64,000 nt of DNA from Candidatus Nanoarchaeia archaeon (GCA_041653395.1 JBAZFK010000001.1:66728-130727); one strand, 5' to 3'; shown: positions 42,167 to 61,139, counted from the first letter of the stretch. The notes: generated by a model from the sequence alone, not told the origin. Translations and numbers: made by a program.

Positions 42167-42170
42167 TATT

Positions 42171-42863: not shown

Positions 42864-42868
42864 GAAAA

Positions 42869-43510
42869 TTACCTGAAATATTGGATTTCCTTTGATTTAT
42901 AATATTTTGAAACAATGAAACCAACAATGAAGCCAGCAGCATGAGCAATGTGGCCTATTCCATCTCCCCCTAATACTGATAAGACTAGTTCAATAATCAA
43001 AAATATTGGCCCGACAACGCTTATTTTTAATGGAACTGGGAAGGGGAAGATGAAGATTCTAGTATTGGGCTCAAAGATTACCACACTTCCAATTATTGCG
43101 TACACAAAGCTGCTAATTCCTAGCCCGTAAATTCCAGGATTAAAGACTCCGAAAATGATGTTTGAAATAACAGTGCTTGAAAAGAATAATTTAATCATGA
43201 AATTAGTGCCTTTTCTTTGCTCTAAAAATGAGCCGAACATGAATATTGCCCAGCAGTTAAAAAATAAATGCTCAAAATTTGCATGAAAGAAAGAGTTAGT
43301 GACTAAAATCCATGGATACTTAAAGACATTTAAGCTATTGAATAAGACTAACTCAAACAAGTCATTGCCAAAAAAGCTTGAGGCAACAAAGCATACAGCG
43401 CATGAGATTAATAAGAATTTGGTGAATTCTCCCATTAAAACAACCGGCTTTTTCTTTGCTTTGCCGTAATAAAACTGCTTTAAATCCTCATCATTGTAAT
43501 ACTCATCCAT
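42869..43510 (-). CDS. Rhomboid-family intramembrane serine protease.
   Basis: It has the TM2 HxxxN (HANFEHLFFN), the Ser motif GISSFVYAIIGS, and the His motif HIAHAAGFIVG. Confidence 0.6.
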   Translation of the reverse strand: MDEYYNDEDLKQFYYGKAKKKPVVLMGEFTKFLLISCAVCFVASSFFGNDLFELVLFNSLNVFKYPWILVTNSFFHANFEHLFFNCWAIFMFGSFLEQRKGTNFMIKLFFSSTVISNIIFGVFNPGIYGLGISSFVYAIIGSVVIFEPNTRIFIFPFPVPLKISVVGPIFLIIELVLSVLGGDGIGHIAHAAGFIVGFIVSKYYKSKEIQYFR

Positions 43511-43566
43511 GAATAATCCTTACCAACCTAAAGTTTTAAAAGTTTTTAATTGTTTTAGTTAAAACA

Positions 43567-44178
43567 ATGAAAAAAGCAATAATTCCACTACTTATGATTT
43601 TAATATTATTTTCAGGATGCGTTAAGCTTAACACTACTGAGGAGCTTAAAAGAAATGGTTTAATGAATGTAATAGTAATATTTGAGTCTTCTTACTTCAC
43701 AATCTCTGATTTGGTTAATTCTTCAATAACTCCTAATCCTAACCTGAATCCAATTTCTGAAAGGGTGAACAACACTTTAATTTATTATTTTTCAAATGTC
43801 AACCCTTTTGAGTCGGACTTGTTTGTCAATTCTGGCGAGAATGAGTATTTAAATGTTAATCCTTCAGGATTCTTAGGAGGCAACACTTTCAAGTATAGCA
43901 CTGAATTCCAATTCCCTTATTATTACTATTATTACACTGCTGATTTTGGCAATGCTTCTATCCAAGGAGATGAGGCTTTTAACAAGTCTTATTTGCTTGA
44001 TTTGGCCCAGAATTACACTATTGATTATGATGTAATTTACTTTGGTGAATTAGTAAGCACTAATGGGCAAGAAATTAGTGATAAAAAAATAAGGTTTTCT
44101 CCGCAAATCAGTAACGACTACGAGCTTACTTTTAGGGAGTTTTTTTTAATAAATTGGCTTAAAAGATTAACTGAGTGA
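43567..44178 (+). CDS. Secreted lipoprotein.
   Basis: It has the lipobox LFSGC, many NxT/S sites, and a YYYYY run. Confidence 0.35.
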   Translation: MKKAIIPLLMILILFSGCVKLNTTEELKRNGLMNVIVIFESSYFTISDLVNSSITPNPNLNPISERVNNTLIYYFSNVNPFESDLFVNSGENEYLNVNPSGFLGGNTFKYSTEFQFPYYYYYYTADFGNASIQGDEAFNKSYLLDLAQNYTIDYDVIYFGELVSTNGQEISDKKIRFSPQISNDYELTFREFFLINWLKRLTE

Positions 44179-44742
44179 TTACAATAATCTTGAACCTTTT
44201 TTTATCATTGAGTTGTCGTTTAATGTTTCAAACACTATTTTAGTTTTTGACATTTTTTTGTAAAATTCGTATTCTTCCTTTATTTTATTAGGCCCAAAGA
44301 TGTAGATATCCATTCCTTGCCATAAAAAAAACACCCCCATTGGCTCAAATACAACAAAGAACATGCTTAAAACCAATCCTGATTGGTTTTTTAAATAATA
44401 ATGCAGCAAGGTTGAGCTTATTAGCAAAGCTGCTGAAATAATTATGAACAATAATCCTTTTTTTATGATTGACTTTTTCTTTAAGCCAGTTAATACTTGG
44501 TGTTTTTTGAAGTGATTCAAAAGCCTTTCCTTTATTATGCTTTCTTTTCTCTCATTCTTAATGGCTTTAGGGATTAATATTTGCAGCTCCAAACCATCAT
44601 ATCCTTTGTCCTGGCTTGCCTTTTTGCACTCGGACAAGAAATCATCTGACAAGGATTTTTTGTCATAATCCCTGCTGTCAAAATCTGAGAATAAGTCCTG
44701 ATAATCATCCACTACAAAGTTTATTTGCTCTGATTCTTCCAT
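44179..44742 (-). CDS. Hypothetical membrane protein (acidic N-terminus, two TM helices).
   Basis: It is supported by the ORF and hydropathy only. Confidence 0.3.
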   Translation of the reverse strand: MEESEQINFVVDDYQDLFSDFDSRDYDKKSLSDDFLSECKKASQDKGYDGLELQILIPKAIKNERKESIIKERLLNHFKKHQVLTGLKKKSIIKKGLLFIIISAALLISSTLLHYYLKNQSGLVLSMFFVVFEPMGVFFLWQGMDIYIFGPNKIKEEYEFYKKMSKTKIVFETLNDNSMIKKGSRLL

Positions 44743-44829
44743 ACTGCTTAATTAAGGTTCATTTTTTTAAAAACTTGATTGTTTCATAATTCTTATAAAT
44801 ACAAAATATTAATATTATTCTTGTTAAGT

Positions 44830-44913
44830 GCTATGATGGCGGAGTGGTCTATCGCGTCGGTCTAGAAAACCGATTCTCGCAAGGGAGCACAGGTTCAAAT
44901 CCTGTTCATAGCG
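44830..44913 (+). tRNA. tRNA-Ser (type II, long variable arm). The anticodon reads AGA in my fold, so it has A at position 34.
   Basis: The hand fold gives acceptor GCTATGA/TCATAGC with G73, D-arm GCG..CGC, anticodon stem TCGGT/ACCGA with loop CTAGAAA, a 15-nt variable arm, and T-arm ACAGG TTCAAAT CCTGT. Confidence 0.75.
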
Positions 44914-44954
44914 GTCCGAGACTAATTCTATACGCCATCCAGTTTTCTTTATAA

Positions 44955-45245
44955 ATGACTTTGGGAGTTGATGTAGTCTTTGGAAGCAACAATAAGATTA
45001 AAGTAAAAATGGACGAATCTTACAAATTCCCCGGCAAAGGCACAGAAGAAAGAGAAGAGCTCATGAAATTATTAAAAAAAATAAAGAAATACGAAGAAGT
45101 CGTAGATTTAGACATATTTTCTCTAAAAAAAATAATGAAAGACGAGCTATGGACAAAAGAAGAGCTAAAACAATTAAAGAAATTCGCCGAGAAAACACAA
45201 AGCACCACAATTTACCCAAGCAAAATAAACAAAAACGAGGAATGA
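44955..45245 (+). CDS. Hypothetical Lys/Glu-rich protein.
   Basis: It is supported by the ORF only. Confidence 0.25.
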   Translation: MTLGVDVVFGSNNKIKVKMDESYKFPGKGTEEREELMKLLKKIKKYEEVVDLDIFSLKKIMKDELWTKEELKQLKKFAEKTQSTTIYPSKINKNEE

Positions 45246-45418
45246 AACTCCTTCTCTCCCTGCAAGTATTTTAAGCTCCTTCGCTCAAGCTCAGAGAGCA
45301 TTAAAAAACTTGCTGCCACAGTATAACACTGTGTTTGGCACCGCTCGAGAAGAAAAGCCTCTCTCTTTCCTTTGAACTGACTGCCCAAACCCCGAATTTT
45401 TTCAACGAAAGTCTTTGA

Positions 45419-45679
45419 TTGAAAAAATCGGAGGTTTGTAAAATGAATACAAAAATGTTAGTAAGTAGGGTGTGGGCAACCACTGGATTAAGCTTCAAGG
45501 TAAAGAAGCTAATCGACGAAAAAACCAGAAAGGTTTTAGAAGAAACCAATCCAGAAATCAACCAGATAGGCATGCTGGAAGACATCAGTAAGCTACTAAG
45601 CTTAGACTGGAAGGTCTCAAGGCAGCTATGGAGAATGAGAGAAGAGCTGAAAGCTGTTAAAGAAGGTGCTCAAGAATGA
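45419..45679 (+). CDS. Hypothetical protein encoded in the GC-rich patch.
   Basis: The ORF has atypical codon usage (CTG, CTC and AGC codons). Its stop overlaps the next start (ATGA). Confidence 0.3.
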   Translation: MKKSEVCKMNTKMLVSRVWATTGLSFKVKKLIDEKTRKVLEETNPEINQIGMLEDISKLLSLDWKVSRQLWRMREELKAVKEGAQE

Positions 45680-45954
45680 GCACCTTCATAAAAGACAGCA
45701 AAGTCGGCGACAAGCTGATAATAAAAGCTTGGGAATCTTTCTCAGGCATCTACTGGCTAGCTACTGAGCTAGCCTACAAGCAAGACTCAGTCATTAACGG
45801 AAAAGTCTACAAAGATGACGAAATCTACTTCGGATTCGTTACAGGTCCATATCCAGAATGGGGCTATTTTAGCAAAACCGAAATAGAACTTCTAAAGCCA
45901 ATGGCTTGGGAGCTAAAAAAAGAAGCCATCGGATGGCTAACCAAAGAATGCTAG
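45676..45954 (+). CDS. Hypothetical protein encoded in the GC-rich patch.
   Basis: The ORF is translationally coupled to the previous one. Confidence 0.3.
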   Translation: MSTFIKDSKVGDKLIIKAWESFSGIYWLATELAYKQDSVINGKVYKDDEIYFGFVTGPYPEWGYFSKTEIELLKPMAWELKKEAIGWLTKEC

Positions 45955-46100
45955 GTTCTACCTAGCTATTAATAAACAATTAGCTTCGCTTGTTGTTAGG
46001 GCTCGCTCTTCGAGCTTGCCTATTTAAATATATTTATGATTATATTTTTTAAAAATAGTAATCATAACATTTTTAAATATAAATTTATTTTTAAATTTTT

Positions 46101-46352
46101 ATGAGTTGTTTAACAAAAATCATAATCAATTTTAATTTAAATAGAATTGAAAATTCAGATATTTTAGGTGAGACAATAAGTAAATATTTGACTAAATCTT
46201 ATGAAATGGCACTAAAAGGAGATATCAAAGCAGTTGAATATGCGTTAGATTCTGCATTATCTGTAAGACTTATTGGTCCAAAGGGATATTTTGATAGAGA
46301 AATAAATACTGCTAAATTGATTTATAATCTTGCTCAAAAAAGAAGTCATTAA
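46101..46352 (+). CDS. Hypothetical small protein. Its 3' end is a diverged copy of the 3' end of the 45676 ORF.
   Basis: The 37-nt stretch at 46335-46372 is about 31/37 identical to 45915-45952. Confidence 0.25.
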   Translation: MSCLTKIIINFNLNRIENSDILGETISKYLTKSYEMALKGDIKAVEYALDSALSVRLIGPKGYFDREINTAKLIYNLAQKRSH

Positions 46353-46475
46353 CTGGCTTACCAAAGAATGCTTTATAAAAGATTTTATCCTATTTATTGG
46401 TTTTTTAAAAAAAATAATTGATTAACTATTATTTTAATAATAATTGTTTTATAGATTTATTTATAAATTATCTAT

Positions 46476-47195
46476 ATGTATATTTTAAAAATGGATGAGC
46501 AAGAATTTTTTACTCTTAATTGGGAAATGAGCGTTGATAAAAAAGATGCTAAGAAAAGGGCAGATTATGTTAAAAAATATGTAGTTAAATATAATAAGCA
46601 TGCTAATAAGATATTAGAATTGGGTGTGGGCATAGGAGAAGTATTAGTTCATTTTTCAAAGGATTATCTTGTTCATGGTCTTGATATTGAGAAAGAATGC
46701 ATTAAAATATGCAGAAAAAAAATGCCAAATGGGAAATTTTTGGTTGCAAGTATGCACAATTTCAAAATTGATGAAAAATTTGATGTAATATTTTCCGCTC
46801 AGGATTCGTTAAACTTTCTTGAAACTTTTAGCAAATGGGAATCAACATTTAAAAATGTCCATAATCATTTGATTAAAAATGGGCTGTTTATCTTTGATAT
46901 ATATACCCCTAAAGTGTTAAAAGAAAATAAAAACAAAGAAGTTCTTGAAAAAGTGCCTGCAGGCTTTTCTTATTACAAAGTAAATGTTAAAAAGAATGTT
47001 TTAGTTTTTGAAGAGAAAATCTTTGAACAAGTAATCGGAAAAGAAAAAACATATAAACTTCATGAGGATAAATTCAATGAAATTATATGGCCAGTTTCCA
47101 AGGTTAAAAAAGCATTGTTAAAATACTTTAAAATTGTTGAAACATTTAATTTGAATCAGGGTTTAAGGATACTTTTTATATGCAAGAAAACTTAG
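46476..47195 (+). CDS. Class I SAM-dependent methyltransferase (small-molecule / Methyltransf_11-12-like).
   Basis: It has motif I ILELGVGIGE, post-I HGLDIE, and motif II FDVIFS. Confidence 0.6.
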   Translation: MYILKMDEQEFFTLNWEMSVDKKDAKKRADYVKKYVVKYNKHANKILELGVGIGEVLVHFSKDYLVHGLDIEKECIKICRKKMPNGKFLVASMHNFKIDEKFDVIFSAQDSLNFLETFSKWESTFKNVHNHLIKNGLFIFDIYTPKVLKENKNKEVLEKVPAGFSYYKVNVKKNVLVFEEKIFEQVIGKEKTYKLHEDKFNEIIWPVSKVKKALLKYFKIVETFNLNQGLRILFICKKT

Positions 47196-47205
47196 TTTTT
47201 TATAA

Positions 47206-48264
47206 TTACTTCTTTCTTCTTCTAAATAAGAAGAATATCAGGTATGCTACTGTTGATAGCCAGTATCCTATTTCGTATTGTTTTTGGCCATAGAACATGT
47301 ATCTCATTGTTATCATTAAGTAGGCAATATTAACTATGTTGTTTGAGCTGATTAGGTTTATTCTTTTAGTGCTTGGCTTGACATGTTCTACAAGCTTGTT
47401 TTCTTCATTCAATTCTTTTAGAGCTAAATTTTGTTCGCACACTTTTTTTATCTGTTCTGGGCTGTTGTTGGTGCTGTTTTGGACTATTCTTATTACTTCA
47501 TTTGTGTTTTCGCATTTGCCTTCTAAGAGTTTCATTATTAATTGGTTGGCTTCTTGGTTGGTTAATGATTTAAGCTTAATAGTGTGGTCAAATTCAATGT
47601 ATGCTTTGTTGTTAATTCCTGCTCCTATGAATTGGTAGTTGTTTCTCATTAAATCCTTGATAATTTTCTTGTCATTAACAGTGGCTGATTCTAAAGAGTC
47701 TAACAAAACAATTATATGATTGTTGTCTTGGCGTAATTTATTCATTAATTCCTGCTTATTGGCTGATTTGCTGGTTATTATTCCTTTGGCTTTGCATATT
47801 GTTTCTAGGCAAGTCTTTATGGGCTTAATCTCTGCATAAACGCTGCCTTTCAAGTATTTATCATTTAATCTTTTAAGCAAAGCTGTTTTTCCAAATCCGC
47901 TCTCTCCTAATAAGAGGACATTTTTCTTCCTTTCAGCATTGTAAAGAATTTCATTAATAACTTCCTTGTTTTCAATGAATAAATCTTTATTGTCAAAAAC
48001 TAAATCTTGTTTTAATTCTGTATTTATTGATTCAAACTTTCCTAAAACTGTTAAAGCTAAAAGTTTTCCTTTAGAAGTTAATGAATACTTGTTTTCTTTC
48101 TTGTCAACTATTCCATTAATAATATAAGAATTAATGATTCTGTAAAAAGTCTTTTTATTAACATTCTTGATTTCATTAAAAGCTTTAGAATTATCAAACA
48201 ACTCTTCCAATATTAATTGATGATTCTTTGTTTTAGAACACAACTGCACAAGCTTTGACCACAT
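47206..48264 (-). CDS. Winged-helix / P-loop ATPase with a C-terminal transmembrane anchor.
   Basis: It has an N-terminal wHTH-like FYRIINSYIINGIV, Walker A LLLGESGFGKTALL, Walker B IIVLLDSLE, and a hydrophobic C-terminal tail. Confidence 0.5.
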   Translation of the reverse strand: MWSKLVQLCSKTKNHQLILEELFDNSKAFNEIKNVNKKTFYRIINSYIINGIVDKKENKYSLTSKGKLLALTVLGKFESINTELKQDLVFDNKDLFIENKEVINEILYNAERKKNVLLLGESGFGKTALLKRLNDKYLKGSVYAEIKPIKTCLETICKAKGIITSKSANKQELMNKLRQDNNHIIVLLDSLESATVNDKKIIKDLMRNNYQFIGAGINNKAYIEFDHTIKLKSLTNQEANQLIMKLLEGKCENTNEVIRIVQNSTNNSPEQIKKVCEQNLALKELNEENKLVEHVKPSTKRINLISSNNIVNIAYLMITMRYMFYGQKQYEIGYWLSTVAYLIFFLFRRRKK

Positions 48265-48332
48265 GAAAGGTATTAGTTTTAAAGATGTATAAAAACAAAT
48301 ATGTTTTTAATAAATTAAATATTTAATTTATT

Positions 48333-49094
48333 ATGGTTGATTTGGTTAACAAGAAAAGGGTTAATTATGACAAACTTGTAGGTTCTTCAAGGGATTTTAC
48401 TAAGCAAATAGAATGGATGGATAAATTATTTAAAAAATATGGAGTTAAGACTGTTCTTGATGCAGGTTGTGGGACAGGAACTCATGCAGTTTTATTGGCA
48501 AAAAAAGGATACCTAGTTTCAGCTTTTGATTACAGCAAAGGGCAGGTAGAACTTGCTAAAGAAAAAGCAAAACAAAACAATGTTAAAATAAATTTTTATG
48601 TGGGAGATATTAGGGATTTTGATTTTGGAAAATTTGATGCAATAGTGAGCTTTTTTGCTCCAATAATGTTTGGATGCAAAAATAAATCCGATTTAAAAAA
48701 AGCCATTTTATCCATAAAGAATTCATTAAGCCCAAATGGCATAGCTTTTATTGAAACTATGGATTCTAAAATGATGGAATCTTCAGGTCTTGAAATACTC
48801 AAACATGCTGACAAAGATTTCAAAGCTGCAAGACTGGCATTCTATGATTTTAATAAAGATAAAAAATCAGCTAAAATAAAATATGTTGAAGTTATTGAAA
48901 ACAATAAAAAAATAACTATTGACAAATCAGAAGCAAATCATTATTACTATGACAAGAAAGATTTTGAAGAAGTGTTTAAATCCCTTGATATTAAACTAAT
49001 TAATTGGTATAGTTCATTTAATGATAAGAAAGGAAAGTATGATTTATTTTCAGATAAAGTATCTTGGATGATTACCCCTTTATTTAGAAAATAA
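48333..49094 (+). CDS. Class I SAM-dependent methyltransferase.
   Basis: It has motif I VLDAGCGTGTHA, post-I SAFDYS, and motif II FDAIVSFF. Confidence 0.65.
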   Translation: MVDLVNKKRVNYDKLVGSSRDFTKQIEWMDKLFKKYGVKTVLDAGCGTGTHAVLLAKKGYLVSAFDYSKGQVELAKEKAKQNNVKINFYVGDIRDFDFGKFDAIVSFFAPIMFGCKNKSDLKKAILSIKNSLSPNGIAFIETMDSKMMESSGLEILKHADKDFKAARLAFYDFNKDKKSAKIKYVEVIENNKKITIDKSEANHYYYDKKDFEEVFKSLDIKLINWYSSFNDKKGKYDLFSDKVSWMITPLFRK

Positions 49095-49134
49095 TTTAAT
49101 TTAAAGAAAATAATATACACTATTCGCTTCATTC

Positions 49135-49674
49135 TCACCATTTGAGACTAAAACCTAGCTCAACTATCACACATGCCAAAACCATGAAAACAAAGCCAAT
49201 TATGGCATCTTTAGCGGAACCAGTCTCTACTGGACCATTAAAAATCACGAATCTTGACTTGTTTGGATAGAATAACTGCACTCCAGATGGTGTAAATAGG
49301 TCTAAAATGATATGAGATGTGTATCCAACTAACATAAACAAGCAATTGGTCTCTACAAATGATAATAAACCAAGCAGTAGAGACCAATAAATACTATGAA
49401 AAAGCCCCCTATGGCCAAAAGTTTTGTATAAATAATCACTAATTCCAGGCAAAAACTTACCTAATAAGGTATTTGGGTTGTCTATATCAGGTATTAAAGA
49501 AAAAACTAAAAGCCAAGCATTGGCCTTTAAGCCAAATAGCATAGAAATCATTATTGCAAGGTTTAAATGAGTAAACCAAATCATAAAATAAAAACAGTTA
49601 AAGTTATATTTAAATAAAAATATAAAATAGTAATGATTAGACATATTTTTTGGGCAGTTATTATTGTATTCCAA
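49135..49674 (-). CDS. DUF457 (YdjM-like) membrane-bound metal-dependent hydrolase.
   Basis: It has FGHRGLFHS and SHIILDLFTPSGVQLFYP motifs with TM helices. Confidence 0.5.
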   Translation of the reverse strand: MEYNNNCPKNMSNHYYFIFLFKYNFNCFYFMIWFTHLNLAIMISMLFGLKANAWLLVFSLIPDIDNPNTLLGKFLPGISDYLYKTFGHRGLFHSIYWSLLLGLLSFVETNCLFMLVGYTSHIILDLFTPSGVQLFYPNKSRFVIFNGPVETGSAKDAIIGFVFMVLACVIVELGFSLKW

Positions 49675-50292
49675 AAAATTTATGCATTTCTTGATTTTAT
49701 TTATGAAATAACTTCAAATTTTTTTCTTGGATGGAAATATGTTGGAAATACTTTTGATATCTATTCAATAAAAAACATTCATCCAACTATTATAAAAATA
49801 TTAGAAAATAAAGCTAAAAAAAAACAGAAGCTTTGGAATAAAAAAAATAAGGGATTTATTTCATTAGGCAGGACTATTAGGGGAGTAAAAAATGAACATG
49901 ATATTCCTTCAGTTATTGTTTATGTTAATGGAAACACTTGGAAATATAAAGGTAAGAAATCTTCAAGTCAATGGATTGATAATCATGGCCATGGAGGAAG
50001 ATTAAGTTCTGGAATGAAAATTTGGAGAAAATTAAAAAATAATAAAAATAAAACTCCAAAAATTCTTTTATTATCTGAAAAAGTAGGTAAATGGAAAGAA
50101 AAAAGAGAAACTAAACATTTTTCATATCCAACTAATCCTTGGCCTAATAATATAAGATTACCAGAATATGTTAATGGGAAAAAAGTAAGATTTTGGAAAC
50201 AACAAAGTGATGATGATTCTGAAGGATATGTTATTCCTATTTTTTATAAAAACCCCAAAGATAAGCTTTTTAATAAGAAATTATTAAAATAA
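49633..50292 (+). CDS. Hypothetical basic Trp/Lys-rich protein.
   Basis: The ORF's 3' end and downstream region are repeated at 50933. Confidence 0.3.
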   Translation: MIRHIFWAVIIVFQKIYAFLDFIYEITSNFFLGWKYVGNTFDIYSIKNIHPTIIKILENKAKKKQKLWNKKNKGFISLGRTIRGVKNEHDIPSVIVYVNGNTWKYKGKKSSSQWIDNHGHGGRLSSGMKIWRKLKNNKNKTPKILLLSEKVGKWKEKRETKHFSYPTNPWPNNIRLPEYVNGKKVRFWKQQSDDDSEGYVIPIFYKNPKDKLFNKKLLK

Positions 50293-50330
50293 ATAATATG
50301 AAATGGTGGTATTGGGTATTAATAATTGGA
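50257..50330 (+). repeat. Direct repeat, copy 1 (about 75 nt, 51-nt identical core). It spans the gene 3' end, the intergenic region and the MKWW start module.
   Basis: AAAGATAAGCTTTTTAATAAGAAATTATTAAAATAAATAATATGAAATGGT is identical at 50933. Confidence 0.8.
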
Positions 50331-50915
50331 TTTTTTTTCTTTTATATGAATTCTATTAAATATTTTGAATCTATTATAATTTTATCAATATTACTTTTAC
50401 CAATATTAGGATTAATATTAATTCCACTTATGCTTATAAAAAATCAAGCTGATAAAAAAGAAGAAGAAAAATTGGAAACACAAATAACAGAAAAAGAAAG
50501 AATGGAAGAAGAAAAATTGGAAAGACAAAGAAAACAAGAAGAAAGAATGGAAGAAGAAAAATTGGAAAGACAAAGAAAACAAGAAGAAAGAATGGAAGAA
50601 GAAAAATTGGAAAGACAAAGAAAACAAGAAGAATCAATAAATAGTGAAATAAAAAAACGGAATAAATCATATTTAAAAAGTTCTCATTTTATAAAGACTG
50701 AAAAAAAATCATTAGATGATAAAATATTTTGTTTAAAATGTCATAAAAGATATGAAAATACTTTTGACAGATTTCTGTGCCATTATTGTGATAACTATTA
50801 TTGTTCCTCCCATAGATTACCCGAAAATCATAATTGTAAAGGTAATTTAAAATCACATTCTTCAAGTTTAATGGAGTCCTATTCTAAAGGAAACTTAACC
50901 GCAAGAGGAAAATAA
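50298..50915 (+). CDS. Membrane-anchored AN1-type zinc-finger protein with an internal 15-aa x3 charged repeat.
   Basis: It has an N-terminal TM (MKWWYWVLIIGFFFFY), the repeat ERMEEEKLERQRKQE x3, and C-x2-C-x12-C-x2-C-x4-C-x2-H-x5-H-x-C (CLKCHKRYENTFDRFLCHYCDNYYCSSHRLPENHNC), which is an exact AN1 spacing. Confidence 0.55.
   Translation: MKWWYWVLIIGFFFFYMNSIKYFESIIILSILLLPILGLILIPLMLIKNQADKKEEEKLETQITEKERMEEEKLERQRKQEERMEEEKLERQRKQEERMEEEKLERQRKQEESINSEIKKRNKSYLKSSHFIKTEKKSLDDKIFCLKCHKRYENTFDRFLCHYCDNYYCSSHRLPENHNCKGNLKSHSSSLMESYSKGNLTARGK
50496..50630 (+). repeat. In-frame tandem repeat of 3 x 45 nt inside the AN1 protein gene.
   Basis: Three perfect copies encode ERMEEEKLERQRKQE, preceded by a degenerate partial copy. 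Confidence 0.85.
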
Positions 50916-50932
50916 TATTCTAAAAAGTCCTT

Positions 50933-51006
50933 AAAGATAAGCTTTTTAATAAGAAATTATTAAAATAAATAATATGAAATGGTATCATGGGGTATTAATA
51001 ATTGGT
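50933..51006 (+). repeat. Direct repeat, copy 2 (duplicate of 50257-50330).
   Basis: See copy 1. Confidence 0.8.
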
Positions 51007-51480
51007 ATAATTTATTTTTTAATTTCTAATTTAAATTCAGATGTTATTTCTGATTCAAATTCAGAGGTTACAGGTTTAATTACTGCTAGTTCTAATCCTT
51101 TATCTACTTATGAATTAGAGGATATTTTTATGAGTATGAGTGTAGAAGGTGCCTATGATTATAGAACTCAACTCTTTGAAGGAGATGCATATTATGCATT
51201 TAGCGATTTGTTTCCATTAAATAGTGAGTGGGAATATGTTTATACTCCTTTAGGGTATGATGAAAATATGAATTATCATAATCCTAAGGATTTTTGTCAT
51301 GCTGGTTCAAGTCAGGGAGAAAATGTTAATTATGTTTATTGTTCATTCCCTGTTAAAATAACTCCTGTTAGTAATGATGGAACTATTGGGATTGTTAAAA
51401 CAATAAATTTAAATGTAAAAATTGATTCATATTGTTTTCGTGAACCATTTCCTTATTGTGTTTTTACAATAAAAGAATAA
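50974..51480 (+). CDS. Membrane-anchored hypothetical protein sharing the duplicated MKWYxxVLIIG N-terminal module.
   Basis: Its N-terminal TM segment is paralogous to the 50298 ORF start and to the C-terminal anchor of the 52673 ORF. Confidence 0.35.
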   Translation: MKWYHGVLIIGIIYFLISNLNSDVISDSNSEVTGLITASSNPLSTYELEDIFMSMSVEGAYDYRTQLFEGDAYYAFSDLFPLNSEWEYVYTPLGYDENMNYHNPKDFCHAGSSQGENVNYVYCSFPVKITPVSNDGTIGIVKTINLNVKIDSYCFREPFPYCVFTIKE

Positions 51481-51482
51481 AA

Positions 51483-52024
51483 TTAGTATTTGAGCATCAT
51501 TTCTCTTTTTAGGTGCCTTAAGGCTTTGAAGAGCAGTTTCTCGTTTAGGTTTAACTTTGTAGCTATTGCTGTCATTTTTAGTTCTCCTCCGTAGTTCTTG
51601 ACTACATAATATGCTAGGGCTCCTATTGATAGGCCTAGTTCTCTGCCTTGTGTCAGGTTGCTTTGTAAGGCTTTGAAGTATAGCCTTTTGATTTCGCTTA
51701 TTTGGTGCTCTTTTAGCTCCAATTTATCGCACATTATGTCTATTTCTGGTTCGTTTATTCCGAATCTTCTCTCATTGTAGTTTGTCATATTTACCCGCAC
51801 CTCACAGGGCAAGCCATACTTATTATTATGGCTCTGCCGTTTATTATTTTTGCTTCAGTCAATGTTTGCCTGAAGTTGCATCTCCAAGCATTGTACAAGC
51901 TTTCCTTAGTTGCCTTCACGTTCCCTCCATAATAGATGTAGTTATCTATTACATAGCCGCAGTGATAGCAGTAGTACTCGTATCTCCCTTTCATCATTAC
52001 TATGTCGCAGTTAGGACAAAGCAT
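51483..52024 (-). pseudogene. Minimal TFB/TFIIB-like gene, frameshifted. A Zn-ribbon ORF runs 52024-51791 and a single cyclin-fold ORF runs 51812-51483.
   Basis: The upstream ORF has the TFIIB Zn-ribbon MLCPNCD...YYCYHCGYV. The downstream ORF has the cyclin-like helix ELGLSIGALAYYVVKNYGGELKMTAIA. They overlap by 22 nt in different frames. Confidence 0.4.
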
Positions 52025-52219
52025 AAATTAACACCTCCATTTAATGCTTTTTTTTTAACCTAATTACATTTTAACAAAAAAATTATTCAAAAACTCTTAT
52101 TCAATAGTTTTAAAAGATTAATCTGACGTTGTCTATGCTTTTACTACTATACTGCTATAATAAAATATAGTTGACATCATAATAATATGGTGTGTTAAAG
52201 TAATATATAAATACTCTTT

Positions 52220-52459
52220 TTAGTATTTCAGCTTGCGTTTTATCTTGAACTCTTCATTCTTCTTCTTAACATATTCTATTATATCAATTGGAACTCTCTT
52301 GCCAATGTATCTGATGATTTCAGGCCTGACTTTGCCATTTACCCTTATACTCATAGCTACATAATAGTAAACTCCGAGTTTTCCGTTTTTTAGTGTGACT
52401 ATTTTCTTTTTTATATACATAAAAAGTATTGTTCCTAAAGAAATATTTAAACAAAACAA
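52220..52459 (-). CDS. Small basic protein, possibly a beta-sheet DNA-binding (integrase-N/AP2-like) domain.
   Basis: KKIVTLKNGKLGVYYYVAMSIRVNGKVRPEIIRYIGKR is the basis, by pattern impression only. Confidence 0.2.
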   Translation of the reverse strand: MFCLNISLGTILFMYIKKKIVTLKNGKLGVYYYVAMSIRVNGKVRPEIIRYIGKRVPIDIIEYVKKKNEEFKIKRKLKY

Positions 52460-52482
52460 GCTAAGTTCTTACTGTTCTAAAA

Positions 52483-52613
52483 TGCGGATTTACGGATTTG
52501 CTAAATTGAAGGCTTGCTGTTTAATTTTGTTCGTTTTTAACAAATTCGCGAGCCGCGAATTTCTTATTTTTGCATAAAATAAACAATCAAGCCTTATTGC
52601 TAAGAAATCCGCA
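52483..52613. promoter_or_regulatory. Divergent intergenic control region: 9-nt inverted repeats TGCGGATTT at 52483-52491 and 52605-52613, flanking a GC-rich palindrome AAATTCGCG-AGC-CGCGAATTT (52542-52562).
   Basis: I saw these in the sequence. It is a perfect 9-bp-arm palindrome in AT-rich DNA between divergently transcribed genes. Confidence 0.35.
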
Positions 52614-52672
52614 AATACGGAAAAATAAAGTGTAAGAAATGCTTTTAAATAGAATTAAATATTTATTTTATT

Positions 52673-53983
52673 ATGGTAATTAAGGATAAAATCCTTGAAT
52701 TTAAGAAAAGTAAATTCAAAAGTGTTGTTGAATCTGTTTGTAAAGCTAGAAATTTGTCATTACCCACTATTAATTTTGATGGTTGTTCTGAAGAAACAGA
52801 AAATCAATTAGCACATTATCATAAAGATAATAATACTATTTGTGTTTCAGAAAGACAATTAAATAAAATGAATTCTGATGTTTTAGAAAATAACGCAGCT
52901 CACGAAGTAAGTCATATTCTTGAATTTAATCATAGTTCAAGTTTTCATAATGAAAATGCTATAAGTCGTCAAGCATCTTTTGTTAAAAAATATAATCAAA
53001 AAAGTCCTGATATAAGTGATTTAAAAGAAAAAGAAGCAGATAAAGATGAATGTGCTTTTCATCTGTGTCATTACAAAGGTGATGAATTATATTATTGTTC
53101 TTTTTGTAAAAAATATTACTGTCATAAACATAAAATACCAAAGTCTCCTTCCATGCCTAATTTTAGATCTGCATCATTAGAAAATGAGGATAAATTATAT
53201 GATTATAGACAAGAAGGTCATCCATGCCCTAATTTTAGAGGATATTATCATGAAGATGTTCATGATCAAAAAATAATTGTTAAAAATATTGAAAGAAAAC
53301 CAAAAATAGATATTAAGGAAAATCAAAGGATAAAAAAAGAAGAATGTGGTCAAGCATTAGATAAGGCACTAAAAACTCCTATAAATAAAAACAATTTCAA
53401 TTCTCAAAAAAAAGAACAGGTATATGTTGATCAATGGATTAACCTAGGTTATGGACAAAAAACTGCTAGTGAATCACTTAATAACTCAAAAAAATATAAA
53501 TCTATTTATGATGAAGATAATGCGCAAATAAAAAATGAAATCTGTGATTTTTGTAAAGATAGAGTTTCTAATGTATTTTATTGCGAACATTGTAACAAAT
53601 ATTTTTGTTATAAACATAGAAATACTCAAAGTCATAACTGTAAAGTTGATAAAAATTCAGAGTATTATAAGAAAAAACTAGAAGGACTTAAAAAAACTTC
53701 AGAAGCATATAATAAATTAAAAAAAGTAAAAAATGAAGATATTAAAGAAGATGAAAAAGAAGTTGTTGAAATTAAACCAGAAATACAAAACAAAAAAACC
53801 ATAAAATGGTATTGGCCAATAATAATTGGTTTTATTTTATTTTATTTAAATTCATTTTTAATTTATATTGATTCATTCAATTATTATGAAAATATTTTTA
53901 TTCTTGTAATATTTTATTTTGTAATTATTTTATTTTCAGTAATTATTTCAATTATTTTATTTTTAAATGAAAATCATAAATAA
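52673..53983 (+). CDS. SprT/Wss1-like HExxH zincin fused to two AN1-type zinc fingers and a C-terminal transmembrane anchor.
   Basis: It has ICVSERQL...AAHEVSHILEFNHSSSFH (SprT-like), CDFCKDRVSNVFYCEHCNKYFCYKHRNTQSHNC (AN1 spacing) plus a degenerate first finger, and a C-terminal WYWPIIIGFILFY TM segment. Confidence 0.5.
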   Translation: MVIKDKILEFKKSKFKSVVESVCKARNLSLPTINFDGCSEETENQLAHYHKDNNTICVSERQLNKMNSDVLENNAAHEVSHILEFNHSSSFHNENAISRQASFVKKYNQKSPDISDLKEKEADKDECAFHLCHYKGDELYYCSFCKKYYCHKHKIPKSPSMPNFRSASLENEDKLYDYRQEGHPCPNFRGYYHEDVHDQKIIVKNIERKPKIDIKENQRIKKEECGQALDKALKTPINKNNFNSQKKEQVYVDQWINLGYGQKTASESLNNSKKYKSIYDEDNAQIKNEICDFCKDRVSNVFYCEHCNKYFCYKHRNTQSHNCKVDKNSEYYKKKLEGLKKTSEAYNKLKKVKNEDIKEDEKEVVEIKPEIQNKKTIKWYWPIIIGFILFYLNSFLIYIDSFNYYENIFILVIFYFVIILFSVIISIILFLNENHK

Positions 53984-54044
53984 AAACTATTTTCTAAAAT
54001 AATAATCTTTTATTTATATATTTCTTTGTTTCTATTAGTATTTC

Positions 54045-55193
54045 ATGTTAGATGATGCTCCAGCTTTACTAAAGGATAAGAATTTCTTGGATGTTTTGCA
54101 TAATGAATGGAATAAGAGAATAGTTGGAGAAGTAATGGCTAGGGAAATAATCTTTGCTATGTGCCTTGGAGGGTGCTTATGTATGAATGCCCAAAAAACA
54201 AGCAATAACTTAATAGTTAACAGCAAGAGTGGTTCAGGAAAGGACTACATTACTACTCAAGTGTTAAATATCATTCCTGGAAAGGAATCTAAATGGATTA
54301 AAAGAACCAGAATTACTAAGACTGCGTTCACTTATTGGCATAACAGCATTATTGAGCCTAACTGGACATGGAATAATAAGATATTTTATGGAGAAGATAT
54401 GAGCAGTGATGTGATTAACAGTGATGTTTTCAAAGTTATTTGCTCAGGAGAAAACTACTCTACTATTGTTAAGGATCAGAAAGCTATTGAATTAAAGATT
54501 AACGGCAAGCCAAGTATTATAGTTACTGCAGCCAAAGCCATACTAGAAGAGGAGTTGCTTAGAAGGTTCGCAGTATTGAATTTAGATGAGTCTAAAGAAC
54601 AGGATGATTTAATCATTGACTTTCACTCAAAAGCTGCAATGAATGAAGGCCTGCTTAACTACGATGAGTCTGTGATGAAAGCTCTTGATAGTTTAAGACC
54701 TGTTAGTGTGGTCATAGATTTCGCCAACAAGTTTGGAAAATACTTCAAGGAAATGAATGCTAATGTTATAGTCAGAACTAATTATAATAGATTCATTGAC
54801 TTAATCAAGTATAGTGCAGTGTTATTTCAGCATCAGAGATTCTGGCTAGATGGAAGCACCATTAAAGCAGAGCCTGAAGATTATGATAGGGCTATTGAAT
54901 GGTTCACTTACTTATTCAAGAATCCATGCTTATTGCCAATCACTAAGGATCAGCAGAAGCTCATTCAAGTAGTGTGGGATTTGAAGCATGCAACAGTGGA
55001 TGAAATCATTTCAGAAGTAACCTTTGCAGGAAGAACATGGGTATATACTAACTTAAACTTATTAACAGAGAAAGGATTCCTAGAAAAGACTAGAATAGAT
55101 GATGAGTTATCCAATTCAAGAAAAAAACTGGATTCTTACACAGCTACAGGCCAAGCCAAAATAAAGCTGCCTTACTGGGTAGACTTAGAGTAA
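54045..55193 (+). CDS. P-loop NTPase with a C-terminal winged-helix domain, a putative replication/partition protein of the element.
   Basis: It has a Walker A-like VNSKSGSGKD, an acidic FYGEDMS stretch, and a C-terminal wHTH-like QQKLIQVVWDLKHATVDEIISEVTFAGRTWVYTNLNLLTEKGFLE. Confidence 0.35.
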   Translation: MLDDAPALLKDKNFLDVLHNEWNKRIVGEVMAREIIFAMCLGGCLCMNAQKTSNNLIVNSKSGSGKDYITTQVLNIIPGKESKWIKRTRITKTAFTYWHNSIIEPNWTWNNKIFYGEDMSSDVINSDVFKVICSGENYSTIVKDQKAIELKINGKPSIIVTAAKAILEEELLRRFAVLNLDESKEQDDLIIDFHSKAAMNEGLLNYDESVMKALDSLRPVSVVIDFANKFGKYFKEMNANVIVRTNYNRFIDLIKYSAVLFQHQRFWLDGSTIKAEPEDYDRAIEWFTYLFKNPCLLPITKDQQKLIQVVWDLKHATVDEIISEVTFAGRTWVYTNLNLLTEKGFLEKTRIDDELSNSRKKLDSYTATGQAKIKLPYWVDLE

Positions 55194-55513
55194 GGCTAAT
55201 TGTTTTTATATTACTTTATTATTATTAATTATCATGGATAAAGAACTTGAAAAATTTTTTACACCAGTTGAATTAAAGATACTGGAAATAATTGAAGAAG
55301 CAAAGAAAGAAAAGAAACTAAAAGAAGAACAAGAAAAAAACAAAAAGAAAGAATAAAACTAATCTTTTTATTATTTTTTTATTAATAGAAAATTCTAACA
55401 ACGTTTTTAATTAATCAATGCTTAATTTTAACCTGCAAATCATTTATCGGGAAAACACTGAAGGATAATTGTTGACTTTTGATTGATTGGCGTATATACT
55501 TAGTATAGGCAAG

Positions 55514-55526
55514 CCTGTTCATAGCG
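55514..55526 (+). repeat. 13-nt exact direct repeat of the tRNA-Ser 3' end (CCTGTTCATAGCG), a candidate attR.
   Basis: It is identical to 44901-44913. It is GC-containing, so a chance match is unlikely in AT-rich DNA. Confidence 0.4.
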
Positions 55527-55664
55527 AAAAATTCTATTCTTAGTTGTTAATACTAAATTAGTGTTTAAAGAAAATATTTTTCGGAGTCAAAAAATATGAA
55601 TAGTATCACAAAAATAAGCTGAGTAAACATAGTTTTATAACTTATTGAATTATTATTAAAAAAC

Positions 55665-56813
55665 ATGAAAAAAACTTATTTAATGCTTTTATTTTTAATT
55701 ATTTTTATTTCCGGATGCTCGCAGCAGCAAACTGGAAGAATGGCTTATACTGAAGATTTGAACATTTATGGTGAATTAATTGATTATTCTCAAAATGGTA
55801 ATTTTACTTTTTTTAAAATTCAGCCCGGATTTGTTGATTACGAATTGAATGATTCCTTGCTTGATATTAATTTAATATACATGAAAACGTTTAGCAAGTT
55901 AGATGAGTTAATTATTTGCTTAGGGCTTTATACTGAAGATTATGGTTCTTCAGGCTTTGTGGGAATGCTAAGAAATGATTATATTAGTTTGGATTCATAC
56001 TTAAAGGAAAAAGGAGTCAGTGCTGATAAGCTTGATTCATGCAAATCAAGTGTTTTTGAAGAGGCTAAGCAGGAGCTAGGTTGCATCAATGCTTATTTAT
56101 CTGAAACTTATATGGACAATATAAAAAAAGGATATGGTGATTTTTGGAATTTTGGAGTTTCATGTTATATGAATATTAATATAACTAAAGGAAATTCTTA
56201 CGCTTTTTATTTTATCAGAGAGGAAAATAGCGAGCCTTGGTCTTTATTAAGCTTTTCTCAAAATTTCAGCAAATATGCAAAAGAGGGTGCCTTTGGTCAT
56301 GAGCGAGACCTGATGATTGACAATAGAAACTTGTTAATTAGTGATGGCGGATCAGGAAGCGCTTCAAGAATAATGCCCCAAATTATTTATAGGGGAGCAT
56401 CCAGCATTAATTCAACTTTAGTTAATAATCAGGATGTTAATATTAGTTATAGAATTAAAAATTTAAGATTAATTAATTTGATTGGGAATTGCAATGTTAA
56501 TTTTGATGAATTAAATCATTCAATCCAAGCGAAATCTAGTGAAACATTAAACTTTGATTTAAACTGCTCTGAAAATGTTGAATTATCAGGCTTTTATTAC
56601 TTATGTTCAGGAGGTTCGAGAAAAAACTGCGCTGAAAGGCCTGATTTTCCAAACTCATTTGTATGTGACGAATGCCCGAACAATGAAACATTCAGTGTAG
56701 TTTATGTTAATAATGATGTTCAACTTGTCGGAACACTTGAATACGCTGATGAGCTAGGAAATCTTCACATTATCTTTGATAAAGAATTCAGCCAAAATAT
56801 AGAGATTAAATGA
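55665..56813 (+). CDS. Secreted lipoprotein with a Cys-rich C-terminus.
   Basis: It has the lipobox FISGCSQ and a signal peptide. Confidence 0.35.
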   Translation: MKKTYLMLLFLIIFISGCSQQQTGRMAYTEDLNIYGELIDYSQNGNFTFFKIQPGFVDYELNDSLLDINLIYMKTFSKLDELIICLGLYTEDYGSSGFVGMLRNDYISLDSYLKEKGVSADKLDSCKSSVFEEAKQELGCINAYLSETYMDNIKKGYGDFWNFGVSCYMNINITKGNSYAFYFIREENSEPWSLLSFSQNFSKYAKEGAFGHERDLMIDNRNLLISDGGSGSASRIMPQIIYRGASSINSTLVNNQDVNISYRIKNLRLINLIGNCNVNFDELNHSIQAKSSETLNFDLNCSENVELSGFYYLCSGGSRKNCAERPDFPNSFVCDECPNNETFSVVYVNNDVQLVGTLEYADELGNLHIIFDKEFSQNIEIK

Positions 56814-56925
56814 TATTAATAGAAAATTCAGGAAATATTTATATAAAATCGCTGATTTATTTGATCTTTGTAAATAAAAAAACATGCTAAAATTAATAGC
56901 GGTTGACCTTTTACGTACCGCGTGC

Positions 56926-58308
56926 TCATAGCGGTTCTCTGATTGGAGTTATTTGGGCTCTTCTGTAAAAATCTCTTTTGAAAAGATTTTTTTCAATGTT
57001 GAATAATCCTTCTTTTCCTTCCATCAAATATTTTACTCCATTTAAGTAAATATCCATTCTTGAATTAGCCATTATATTGTTTTCATGGATTATTCGATCG
57101 TTGTCATTCATGACTGAAGCATTAAATGCTCTCATCATCATCCATTCAGTTTCTTCCAAGAATTTATGGGGTTTGAATAAGTGTTCAAGGTTCATGATTT
57201 CATAATACCTAGTTTTTTCTCCATCAAGCTTTGTTCTTAACACAGTGAATAAGCTATAATTTTTTAGTCCAAAAGGAAAATCATGGTTTTTATAACGAGT
57301 TGGAGGAGCGTTTTTTATTCCTCTGATTTGCTCTTCAAGCTCTCTTAGGGTTGTTTTTGCGTCGCTTAATATTATGAAGCTATTAGTGCAGATTTCTGAG
57401 TTTTTTAAAATGCTTAATGATTTATTATTATCTTTTACAGTGGTTTTTTTGTTCCATCTGTTAAGTTGAGATTGCGAAAATGATTCAATGCCTATGCTGA
57501 CTTCCTCAATGCTTTTGCAATAATCCTTAAATATTGATTCATTCTCTACAACACTATCCGCTCTTGAAAGAAATAATGCTTTTAGATTATTCTCACTTAA
57601 GTATTCAAGGATTTTTTCAGCCCTTATCGGGTCTGACATGAAGTTATCATCCATGAACTGAATCCTGCTTAAATTTTTGTGATATTTTATTAATTTGTCT
57701 ATCCAGTTGATTACTGTATTTGCATTCATACCTCTTAATCCTTGGTTGAAATATTTTGCCTCGCAGAATGAGCAGTTTCCATTGCATCCTCTCATTGTTG
57801 ACAGCTGCACAATGCTATTAAGATTCTCTCCATAAAATAAGGGTGTGACAGCATTGTTAATATCAATAGGGTTTCTTTTTGAAAAATTGCTGTTTCTCTG
57901 GTAAATTCCTTTAATTTTTGAAGTGGATTCGTTGTTTTTTATTGCTAAAACATACTCCAGTAATGTTTCCTCTCCTTCTCCCCAGCATATTGCATCTATG
58001 TACTCATTTTTTAGCAATTCTTCATGAAAAATGCTTACCTGCCCTCCAACTATCACATAAATTCCAGGATTTGCATTCTTGATTACTTTTGAGTATTCTT
58101 TTATGTCATAAATATCCTCTGGGAAGCCACTGAGCCCTACGACTTTTGGATAAATCATCATTTTAGGATCATCTCTAAAATTGTCAATGCTGCAGCTTAC
58201 TCCATTTTTAAGCATGTATTCTTTCAAGAATTCAAGACCAAGAATCGGCCTTTCATACTTTGTGTTTCCAGCTTTAATCAAAAGAACATCCACTTTGTTA
58301 TAATCCAT
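56926..58308 (-). CDS. B12-binding-domain radical SAM protein.
   Basis: It has the CxxxCxxC motif CNGNCSFC and an N-terminal B12-binding-like domain. Confidence 0.6.
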   Translation of the reverse strand: MDYNKVDVLLIKAGNTKYERPILGLEFLKEYMLKNGVSCSIDNFRDDPKMMIYPKVVGLSGFPEDIYDIKEYSKVIKNANPGIYVIVGGQVSIFHEELLKNEYIDAICWGEGEETLLEYVLAIKNNESTSKIKGIYQRNSNFSKRNPIDINNAVTPLFYGENLNSIVQLSTMRGCNGNCSFCEAKYFNQGLRGMNANTVINWIDKLIKYHKNLSRIQFMDDNFMSDPIRAEKILEYLSENNLKALFLSRADSVVENESIFKDYCKSIEEVSIGIESFSQSQLNRWNKKTTVKDNNKSLSILKNSEICTNSFIILSDAKTTLRELEEQIRGIKNAPPTRYKNHDFPFGLKNYSLFTVLRTKLDGEKTRYYEIMNLEHLFKPHKFLEETEWMMMRAFNASVMNDNDRIIHENNIMANSRMDIYLNGVKYLMEGKEGLFNIEKNLFKRDFYRRAQITPIREPL

Positions 58309-58541
58309 GAACTATTATTTAAGAATTTTTAATTATAAATATTGCCCTTGGAATTGCATTATCTTATTTTTAATGGTTTTTTTATATTATTTAAATATTT
58401 TTTCAATACTAATTTATAAATGCTTAAGGTTTAAAGTATTATTTAGCATAAGAAATTATTTCAGGTAAAGGATTATTAATAATTTTTTAAAAAATTCTTT
58501 CAAGGGATTAGGGAAAATAATTTTGTGTCTAAGAGGTAAAA

Positions 58542-61124: not shown

Positions 61125-61139
61125 TATTATTTAACAGTT

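Follow-up and report, generated by a model that had tools for sequence, protein, structure and literature searches.

Archaea and bacteria offer well-known examples of insertion by tyrosine recombinases at the 3' ends of tRNA genes, of integrase loss, and of islands accreting in tandem. It is also well known that an MCM-like protein may be the only replication protein of an archaeal element, and integrated elements of Thermococcales and Methanococcales reportedly encode MCM-like helicases. In integration of the SSV (Sulfolobus spindle-shaped virus) type, the attachment site attP lies within the integrase gene, which is split by the integration. Bacterial cis-mobilisable elements (CIMEs) are integrase-less islands flanked by attachment (att) sites, and islands accrete in tandem at tRNA and tmRNA genes. 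Here we describe a 10.6-kb island in a stretch of 64,000 nucleotides (nt) from Candidatus Nanoarchaeia archaeon, a DPANN archaeon (JBAZFK010000001.1, positions 66728-130727; below, the window). Positions 44914-55526 of the window very probably represent a plasmid-like mobile element that has integrated at the 3' end of a tRNA-Ser gene and is an integrase-less member of its family.

The island resembles tRNA-targeting integrative elements in its position at the tRNA 3' end, the regenerated tRNA, the direct repeat at its bounds, the existence of empty and occupied alleles, and its deviant composition. It differs from them in that the copy in the window has no integrase, the att repeat is only 13 nt long here and 11 nt in an intact relative, and the host belongs to DPANN. 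The sole recognisable replication protein is MCM-like, as in the elements of Thermococcales and Methanococcales, and relatives of the island have a tyrosine recombinase gene by the left att site, attL. However, the replication protein of the window (below, Rep) has no MCM N-terminal domain and falls into a separate family, PF27228. The archaeal host, the tRNA target and the tyrosine recombinase family are shared with SSV-type integration. The split-integrase mechanism itself is excluded, as there is no integrase fragment at either end of the island, and the integrase of the intact relative, locus L008, is whole (385 amino acids, aa) and lies inside attL. Similarly to CIMEs, the island has att sites but no integrase; a degenerate att copy lies downstream of it (56921-56933), and one relative, locus L005, has tandem att copies. 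Unlike CIMEs, it resides in an archaeon, its mobilisation in trans is a proposal, and the second "element" downstream (55527-56920) is 1.4 kb long and has no inverted repeats. Finally, the name of PF27228 seems to derive from protein MTBMA_p00010 of plasmid pME2001 of Methanothermobacter marburgensis, as judged by the locus-tag prefix, and the 382-aa Rep of the window carries this domain. Plasmid pME2001 is a cryptic free plasmid that replicates autonomously and provides the replicon of shuttle vectors; the role of MTBMA_p00010 in replication is not stated in that source (PMC8609365). Unlike this free plasmid of a methanogen, the element in the window is integrated, is 10.6 kb long and has a DPANN host.

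The tRNA-Ser gene (anticodon AGA; 44830-44913, plus strand) is the integration target and is intact. It is recognised both by Rfam (tRNA, 59.9 bits) and by ARAGORN (44829-44914); Rfam found nothing else in the region 44700-57100. The attL core CCTGTTCATAGCG (44901-44913, plus strand) is formed by the final 13 nt of the tRNA, that is, the 3' strand of the T-stem, the 3' strand of the acceptor stem and the discriminator base, and ends exactly at the tRNA end. The initial annotation had reported that this 13-mer recurs exactly and in the same orientation at 55514-55526, and had proposed its frequency as a check. A search of the window bore out the recurrence: with at most one mismatch allowed, there are exactly two copies, both on the plus strand, the second being the attR core, a displaced copy of the tRNA 3' end. 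The number expected by chance is 0.04, and two or more matches were observed in none of 100 shuffles. The anticodon AGA means an adenosine at position 34 (A34), and the same anticodon is found in two related genomes (L002, 6832-6917; L003, 8913-8998). To our knowledge, A34 is very rare in archaeal tRNA genes, and archaea are thought to have no A34-to-inosine editing.

The 3' half of the tRNA was used as a 22-nt pattern to scan the GTDB species representatives, which yielded a single contig, JBAZGS010000002.1, from a metagenome-assembled genome (MAG) of Candidatus Nanoarchaeia. The same pattern scanned in a metagenome collection yielded contig Ga0172381_10004351 (L003). Locus L008 is the end of JBAZGS010000002.1, L002 lies on the same contig, and L009 is a part of a 144-kb contig from the same metagenome. 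The pattern is exact in L002/L008 and in L003, and the tRNA gene lies within a blastn match of about 92% to the window. Contig JBAZGS010000002.1 is 92% identical to positions 39840-44915 over 5.1 kb, and the homology stops at 44915, at the tRNA end; past the tRNA, this contig carries a tyrosine recombinase gene, P0121. In L003, whose flanks are about 92% identical to those of the window, the tRNA 3' end is directly followed by the homologue of positions 55527-55570 (plus strand; below, flank F). The same flank follows the att copy in L009 and the second att copy in L005. The match of the right-hand att copy together with F to L003 (8870-8929) spans 60 nt with 90% identity (E = 1.4e-16), and homology between L003 and the window resumes at 58390-63872. 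Judging by these alignments, L003 is the empty site, its breakpoints coinciding with both copies of the 13-mer. An alignment to relatives in search of an empty tRNA-Ser site had been suggested in the initial annotation, and the site found in L003, together with the break of synteny at the tRNA end, supports its proposal that attL is inside the tRNA and attR is a partial copy.

An even closer pair of alleles is provided by L003 on the one side and L008 with L009 on the other. The latter two match L003 at 99.9% (left) and 100% (right), and the overlap of the two matches in L003 is exactly TGTTCATAGCG, 11 nt. They contain a different, larger element at the same tRNA end, with the integrase gene first and a Rep homologue last. 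This element is bounded by CCTGTTCATAGCG (attL) and CGTGTTCATAGCG (attR), so that the identity of its att sites is just 11 nt. It is spread over contigs Ga0378408_0000264 and Ga0378408_0000168; the first 5.8 kb of the latter appear to contain a 237-aa integrase fragment, P0139, and the whole may be a single element or a tandem pair. As a near-identical background is either empty or occupied, integration at the last 11 nt of the tRNA would be a current process in this group. The 11-nt core also shows that cores this short are usual in the family, and the chief objection to the 13-nt repeat of the window thereby disappears.

The junctions of the window have been assembled elsewhere as well. The attL junction is present in L001 (99.5% identity, JGI 3300035208) and L018 (ENA ERZ27247358), and the attR junction was independently assembled in L012 (100%). 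Because both junctions occur in contigs from other assemblies, an assembly chimera is an unlikely source of them. Contig L018 (positions 1-569) starts within the att core (TCATAGCG) and continues with the left end of the island and a 96-aa open reading frame (ORF) identical to that of the window; it diverges from the window in the non-coding leader that follows. The start at the core could reflect a branch of the assembly graph with alternative left contexts, or simply low coverage.

Pfam and PHROGs were applied to the island ORFs of at least 75 aa that are not antisense to a larger gene, and to a 40-aa ORF after Rep. Neither revealed a recombinase among these ORFs, Pfam in particular finding none of the tyrosine or serine type. 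No trace of an integrase was seen in the window by tblastn with the partial and full L008 integrase, and a hidden Markov model (HMM) of 80 integrase homologues gave no match in all six frames of the 64-kb window (best E = 0.2). Hence the initial statement that no recombinase is recognisable is confirmed. The relatives, on the other hand, do have one. P0121 of L008 is an intact 385-aa tyrosine recombinase encoded just inside attL (Pfam Phage_integrase, E = 8.8e-25), and the tyrosine recombinases of intact relatives have a C-terminal zinc ribbon. The integrase gene adjoins attL in L008 and L011, and is located at the contig end and cut off in L004 and L007. In L011, from Candidatus Tiddalikarchaeum, it adjoins tRNA-Asp. 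The integrase co-occurs with a Rep homologue in L004, L007 and L011. A fourth co-occurrence is suggested by the contig holding L010, as P0136 (integrase) and P0007 (Rep homologue) are each listed on a 29146-bp contig.

Where L008 has 6.2 kb from the integrase to a helicase (integrase, 48-aa ORF, 272-aa ORF, N6/N4 methyltransferase, ResIII helicase), the window has 337 nt (44914-45250), which thus take the place of an integrase and restriction-modification module. Of the two options left by the initial annotation, a decayed element and one with an unrecognised integrase, the former is favoured. The latter is unnecessary, because intact members of the family encode an ordinary tyrosine recombinase.

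The attP site was reconstructed by joining the right and left ends of the island. The core of this attP lies between the arms of a 9-nt inverted repeat, TGGCGTATA (55488-55496, 17 nt before the core) and TATACGCCA (44929-44937, 15 nt after the core). This length was reached in 66 of 2000 shuffles. The inverted repeat of the L008/L009 element is different, TTAAAAACACA, and was reached in 5 of 2000 shuffles; a second pair read by eye, GCGAGTGAC/GTCACTCGC, is situated 15 and 11 nt from the core. These inverted repeats could be integrase-binding sites. The predicted attP junction is …GTATAGGCAAG-CCTGTTCATAGCG-GTCCGAGACTAATTC…, or, in a longer form, TTAGTATAGGCAAG, CCTGTTCATAGCG and GTCCGAGACTAATTCTATACGCC in succession. 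The predicted attB junction is …GGTTCAAATCCTGTTCATAGCGAAAAATTCTATTC…, in a longer form GGTTCAAATCCTGTTCATAGCG followed by AAAAATTCTATTCTTAGTTG. No contig with the attP junction was found.

The Rep gene (54045-55193, plus strand, 382 aa) is adjacent to the right end of the island. The P-loop and winged-helix Rep-like gene seen initially by the right-hand repeat can now be assigned to PF27228 (MTBMA_p00010_2nd), with a predicted fold consisting of an MCM-like AAA+ ATPase and a C-terminal winged helix. An identical protein, P0001, and essentially all listed homologues have PF27228 in the precomputed annotation; it was not reported by the local Pfam scan. An exact-protein look-up of the window Rep returned no record, though the identical P0001 is in the homology database. 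At least 156 homologues were found, most of them in DPANN MAGs and in metagenome contigs, the latter frequently 6-10 kb in length. The Walker A residues G63, G65, K66 and D67 do not vary among 31 sequences, and an AlphaFold model based on the alignment of these sequences has pLDDT 86. The top Foldseek matches in PDB are to the AAA+ core and winged helix of MCM proteins from archaea and eukaryotes (E = 1.7e-9, probability 1.0), with a TM-score of about 0.5 normalised to the query and about 0.3 normalised to the full-length MCM targets, so that only a part of MCM is covered. By sequence, the Rep profile has only weak winged-helix matches in PDB, at the C-terminus. A bona fide MCM has an N-terminal OB-fold/zinc domain before the AAA+ core and is about 600-700 aa long. 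Rep has no Pfam MCM match and no such N-terminal domain, and the model suggests that it acts like a minimal MCM-type ATPase and not as a bona fide MCM. Its dN/dS (ratio of non-synonymous to synonymous substitution rates) is 0.035-0.054 in comparison with L004-L006, indicating strong purifying selection.

A scan of viral contigs with the single Rep protein gave no relatives, whereas the same scan with the alignment gave four distant ones (38-44% identity), on IMG/VR contigs of 29.5-41.7 kb. One of these contigs, L013 (UViG_3300017963_000425), encodes a 574-aa Rep relative (17814-19736) in a predicted tailed virus with a portal and a Mu F-like protein; it also has glycosyltransferase, methyltransferase and radical-SAM (S-adenosylmethionine) genes. 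This relative implies that the Rep family is common to viruses and plasmid-like elements.

The GC content of the island is 0.288, compared with 0.344 and 0.342 in the left and right flanks, and the tetranucleotide distance in 2-kb segments starting at 44001-53001 has z from 1.8 to 6.0. Thus a compositional check proposed initially revealed a deviation across the island. The island shares modules with L008, L009, L010, L011 and L004-L007, and the early impression that the 10.6 kb look like mobile cargo holds, the modules being common to integrase-bearing elements. The YdjM gene, the TFB-like ORFs, a 79-aa ORF and Rep have homologues among L009, L010 and L011, and L004-L007 share the block 52073-52638 and Rep at 75-88% nucleotide identity. 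The comparison shows the family set to consist of the PF27228 Rep, a split TFB-like pair, a winged-helix/P-loop/membrane ATPase, YdjM, small conserved ORFs, and variable cargo.

The most plausible history of the locus is as follows. Site-specific recombination between attP of the element and the last 11-13 nt of the chromosomal tRNA-Ser gene regenerated an intact tRNA at attL and pushed the original tRNA 3' end with flank F 10.6 kb away, to attR. The tyrosine recombinase of the intact relatives probably catalyses both integration and excision. The copy in the window seems to have lost the integrase module and would be unable to move on its own. The identical att cores, the retained inverted repeat and the intact Rep under purifying selection imply that it either was immobilised recently or may be moved in trans by an integrase. 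It is called plasmid-like because there are no virion genes in the island or in its closer relatives.

Several points weigh against this interpretation. L003, which provides the empty site, belongs to a lineage with only about 92% identity to the window, and the window's own population yielded neither an empty site nor a circular junction. On the right of attR, collinearity with the empty site is limited to the 44 nt of flank F, followed by 2.8 kb of non-homologous sequence (55571-58389), and thus the right boundary depends on a short, though significant, match (E = 1.4e-16 including the core). The core itself is short, 13 nt, and the inverted repeat of the window gives modest support (p about 0.03). 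The roles of integrase, Rep and att sites throughout the family are assigned from sequence and models. Loss of the integrase is suggested by the comparison with L008, and an ancestor that never had one, for example, a satellite built by recombination, is possible. Finally, the search for a helper integrase spanned the 64-kb window of the host genome.

The alternative that survives best is that the island is a functional satellite without an integrase of its own, which has retained its Rep and att sites and is moved in trans by the tyrosine recombinase of a related helper. We consider this possible, though rather unlikely. It agrees with the identity of both att cores, the retention of the 9-nt inverted repeat on either side of the core, and the intact Rep with its low dN/dS (0.035-0.054). 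Furthermore, the integrase-less left end, from the core to the 96-aa ORF, is 99.5-100% identical in two other datasets (L001 and L018), integrase-bearing relatives use the same tRNA-Ser site, and the start of L018 within the core is as expected of an assembly-graph branch at this point. However, contigs with the same left end may represent the same host population resampled, and neither a circular junction nor a second genomic location of the island was found. The 64-kb window contains no integrase, and the TGGCGTATA repeats differ from GCGAGTGAC of the sole integrase-bearing element with both ends known, so that the integrase of that element may not recognise the island.

Less probable still is a defective provirus, that is, a remnant of a virus genome. 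The distant Rep relatives on the four IMG/VR contigs, one of which (L013) encodes a phage portal and a Mu F-like protein, are compatible with such an origin. On the other hand, Pfam and PHROGs detected no virion gene in the island, be it for a capsid, a portal, a terminase or another component, with the reservation that small archaeal capsid proteins can escape profiles. The closer relatives L004-L011 have no virion genes in the precomputed Pfam annotation, and the Rep family is apparently named after a protein of a cryptic plasmid, pME2001.

It is very improbable that the island is an autonomous element with a new kind of integrase encoded by one of its ORFs, for example, 44955-45245, 49633-50292 or 50974-51480. 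Several island ORFs indeed have no family assignment, and the 96-aa ORF 44955-45245 occupies the position of the integrase by attL. However, every relative in which the relevant end is visible has an ordinary tyrosine recombinase. The product of the 96-aa ORF is short, abundant in lysine and glutamate, and devoid of conserved motifs, and this ORF occurs only in L001 and L018 among the loci fetched. The other two ORFs have no homologue in the related elements fetched, and the N-terminus of the product of 50974-51480 is hydrophobic, as in membrane or secreted proteins. The weakest alternative, chance recurrence of a 13-mer in an ordinary variable region, could appeal to the shortness of the repeat and to the variability of the neighbourhood (replacement of 55571-58389, a 1.3-kb indel at 58849/58866), but is hardly credible given the expectation of 0.04 occurrences, the coincidence to the base of the homology breakpoints with both copies, the insertion of another element, one with a tyrosine recombinase, at the 11-nt core where the background is 99.9-100% identical, and the right ends of related elements that abut the same core in L005 and L009.

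We now describe the genes of the integrated element from left to right. The left end (44914-45250, plus strand) contains the inverted-repeat arm, a short stretch similar to the region upstream of the L008 integrase gene, and the 96-aa ORF (44955-45245), which has no Pfam family. It is followed by a GC-rich conserved module (45251-46056, plus strand) consisting of a non-coding leader (approximately 45252-45372) and two small ORFs (approximately 45443-45679 and 45676-45954). The module is 85% identical to L008 16147-16952 at the nucleotide level, and the two ORFs have 79% and 91% protein identity to L008, one of them also 75% to L010. The initial annotation had described a GC-rich patch with foreign codon usage at 45246-45960. 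The elevated GC content is real (0.417), but the patch is a conserved module of the element family and not a separate foreign insertion. The leader, about 120 nt long, is almost identical in L008, being conserved far better than the ORFs that follow, and is in part retained in L010. No Rfam family matches it, its folding signal is modest (z = -2.15), and a 38-nt piece of it gave no match in the scan of viral contigs. It may serve as a promoter/operator or an origin, or encode a small RNA.

Two class-I SAM-dependent methyltransferases, considered as cargo, are encoded on the plus strand at 46476-47195 (Pfam Methyltransf_25, E = 9e-12) and 48333-49094 (Methyltransf_25, E = 6e-19). Between them, on the minus strand, lies a core gene of the family (47206-48264), encoding a winged-helix and P-loop NTPase with a hydrophobic C-terminus. 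Matches of its product to AAA_16, NACHT and HVO_A0261_N are below the curated cut-off, and its protein identity is 82% to L010 and 48% to L008. Pfam thus agrees with the early description of two methyltransferases around a membrane ATPase. Next come a YdjM-family membrane hydrolase gene (49135-49674, minus strand; Pfam YdjM, E = 2e-19; 75% protein identity to L010) and a 219-aa ORF of no known family (49633-50292, plus strand).

The AN1 zinc-finger proteins noticed initially correspond to two zf-AN1 matches. The first protein (50298-50915, plus strand) has an N-terminal membrane anchor and three in-frame 45-nt tandem repeats at 50438-50662, EEKLERQRKQEERME. The second (52673-53983, plus strand, 436 aa) has a C-terminal membrane anchor and belongs to the cargo; the relatives have a different gene of about 260 aa in this place. 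A 168-aa ORF without a family (50974-51480, plus strand) has an N-terminal membrane anchor paralogous to that of the first zf-AN1 protein. The duplicated gene ends mentioned in the initial annotation are indeed present as two repeat families, 45912-45952 and 46332-46372 (83%), and 50239-50343 and 50915-51019 (84%). The latter duplication comprises the N-terminal membrane anchor and its upstream region, and a shorter copy of the anchor is found at 53807-53853.

An archaeal TFB combines a zinc ribbon, a B-reader/linker and two cyclin repeats in one polypeptide. In contrast, the window has two minus-strand ORFs, one encoding a single TFIIB cyclin repeat (approximately 51483-51788, or 51483-51812; about 101 aa; Pfam TFIIB, E = 2.6e-5), the other a zinc ribbon (51791-52024, 77 aa; Zn_Ribbon_TF, a weak match with E = 0.0019). 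The junction consists of a stop codon, two nucleotides and ATG. The two-ORF layout is also observed in the diverged relatives L009 and L010, with different geometries of the junction. As the same split is seen in these relatives, it is probably a genuine two-gene arrangement and not the frameshift in a minimal TFB proposed initially. The 79-aa ORF (52220-52459, minus strand) adjoins Rep across the family, with protein identity of 85-90% to L004-L007 and 56-68% to L009, L010 and L011. The right end after Rep (55194-55513, plus strand) contains a conserved 40-aa ORF (55234-55356) and the inverted-repeat arm (55488-55496), and is homologous to L005 through the att copy.

The cargo varies across the family. 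Here it consists of the two methyltransferases and the zf-AN1 membrane proteins; in the relatives it is of a defence type, with restriction-modification genes, Piwi/DUF4365, and OLD-TOPRIM/HEPN/UvrD genes. L007 (4316-7214) encodes DUF4365 and a protein with a faint Piwi match, possibly an Argonaute system. L010 encodes UvrD/PD-(D/E)XK, HEPN and an AAA_15/OLD-TOPRIM protein, the latter Gabija-like (377-3918 and 7758-9566). Methyltransferase/helicase and methylase/Vsr modules are present in L008 and L011.

The region downstream of attR contains a candidate relic of another insertion. Positions 56814-56933 (plus strand) resemble the right end of a second element and include a third, degenerate att copy, CGTGCTCATAGCG (56921-56933), with two mismatches to the core. 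The approximately 110 nt before this copy align with the right end of a second element in L005 (7120-7250, 85% identity) and with that of the L009 element (11994-12113, 76%). A B12-binding radical-SAM gene (56926-58308, minus strand), which L003 and L009 lack, has its stop codon within the third att copy. After the 44 nt of flank F, there are different genes in the window, in L003/L009 and in L005. The 8.6-kb contig of L005 has two tandem att copies (2903-2915 and 7238-7250), which enclose a 4.3-kb integrase-less segment with an AP (apurinic/apyrimidinic) endonuclease gene and two Fic-domain genes, suggesting that in a further lineage, too, elements have accreted in tandem at this tRNA end. 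The 1.4-kb stretch 55527-56920 was considered as a full second element and rejected, as it has no inverted repeats like those of the main island; it is retained as a possible relic. Overall, elements appear to have piled up and decayed downstream of the tRNA, with at least one earlier insertion.

Further downstream, at 58849-58866, the window has 17 nt where relatives hold an additional 1.3 kb (L003 4998-6277), with a 204-aa gene (NUDIX/winged-helix annotation in L009) and a 169-aa gene. Variability extends throughout the region downstream of tRNA-Ser. Two other compositional outliers were observed in the window. One, at 17001-19500, has a low GC content (0.27, z = 2.9) and small genes, including those for an SSB-like OB-fold protein and a treble-clef zinc-finger protein. 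It was considered as another island and rejected, since it contains small genes only and has no mobile-element signature. The other, at 4001-6000, has a high GC content (0.41, z = 2.8).

DPANN viruses and mobile elements have been catalogued (Wu et al. 2024, as cited in PMC13573593). Mobile elements of DPANN are thinly described, and few of them have both ends defined to the base. Here the locus, together with the comparison of L003 with L008 and L009, defines the short core and places the target at the last 11-13 nt of tRNA-Ser, and the likely enzyme is a tyrosine recombinase with a C-terminal zinc ribbon. The att sequences allow one to search metagenomic reads for excision and integration, and the island should be masked when the core metabolism of the host is inferred. 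No general concept is changed, as tRNA-linked islands, MCM-like Rep proteins on archaeal elements and the loss of integrases are all familiar. The additional interest is in the very short core, the pairs of empty and occupied sites exact to the base, and the possible movement in trans. If such movement does occur, helpers would compete for the same tRNA-Ser site, yielding the tandem arrays and relics downstream of it, and the island would be an archaeal counterpart of the bacterial cis-mobilisable elements, in hosts that are themselves obligate symbionts.

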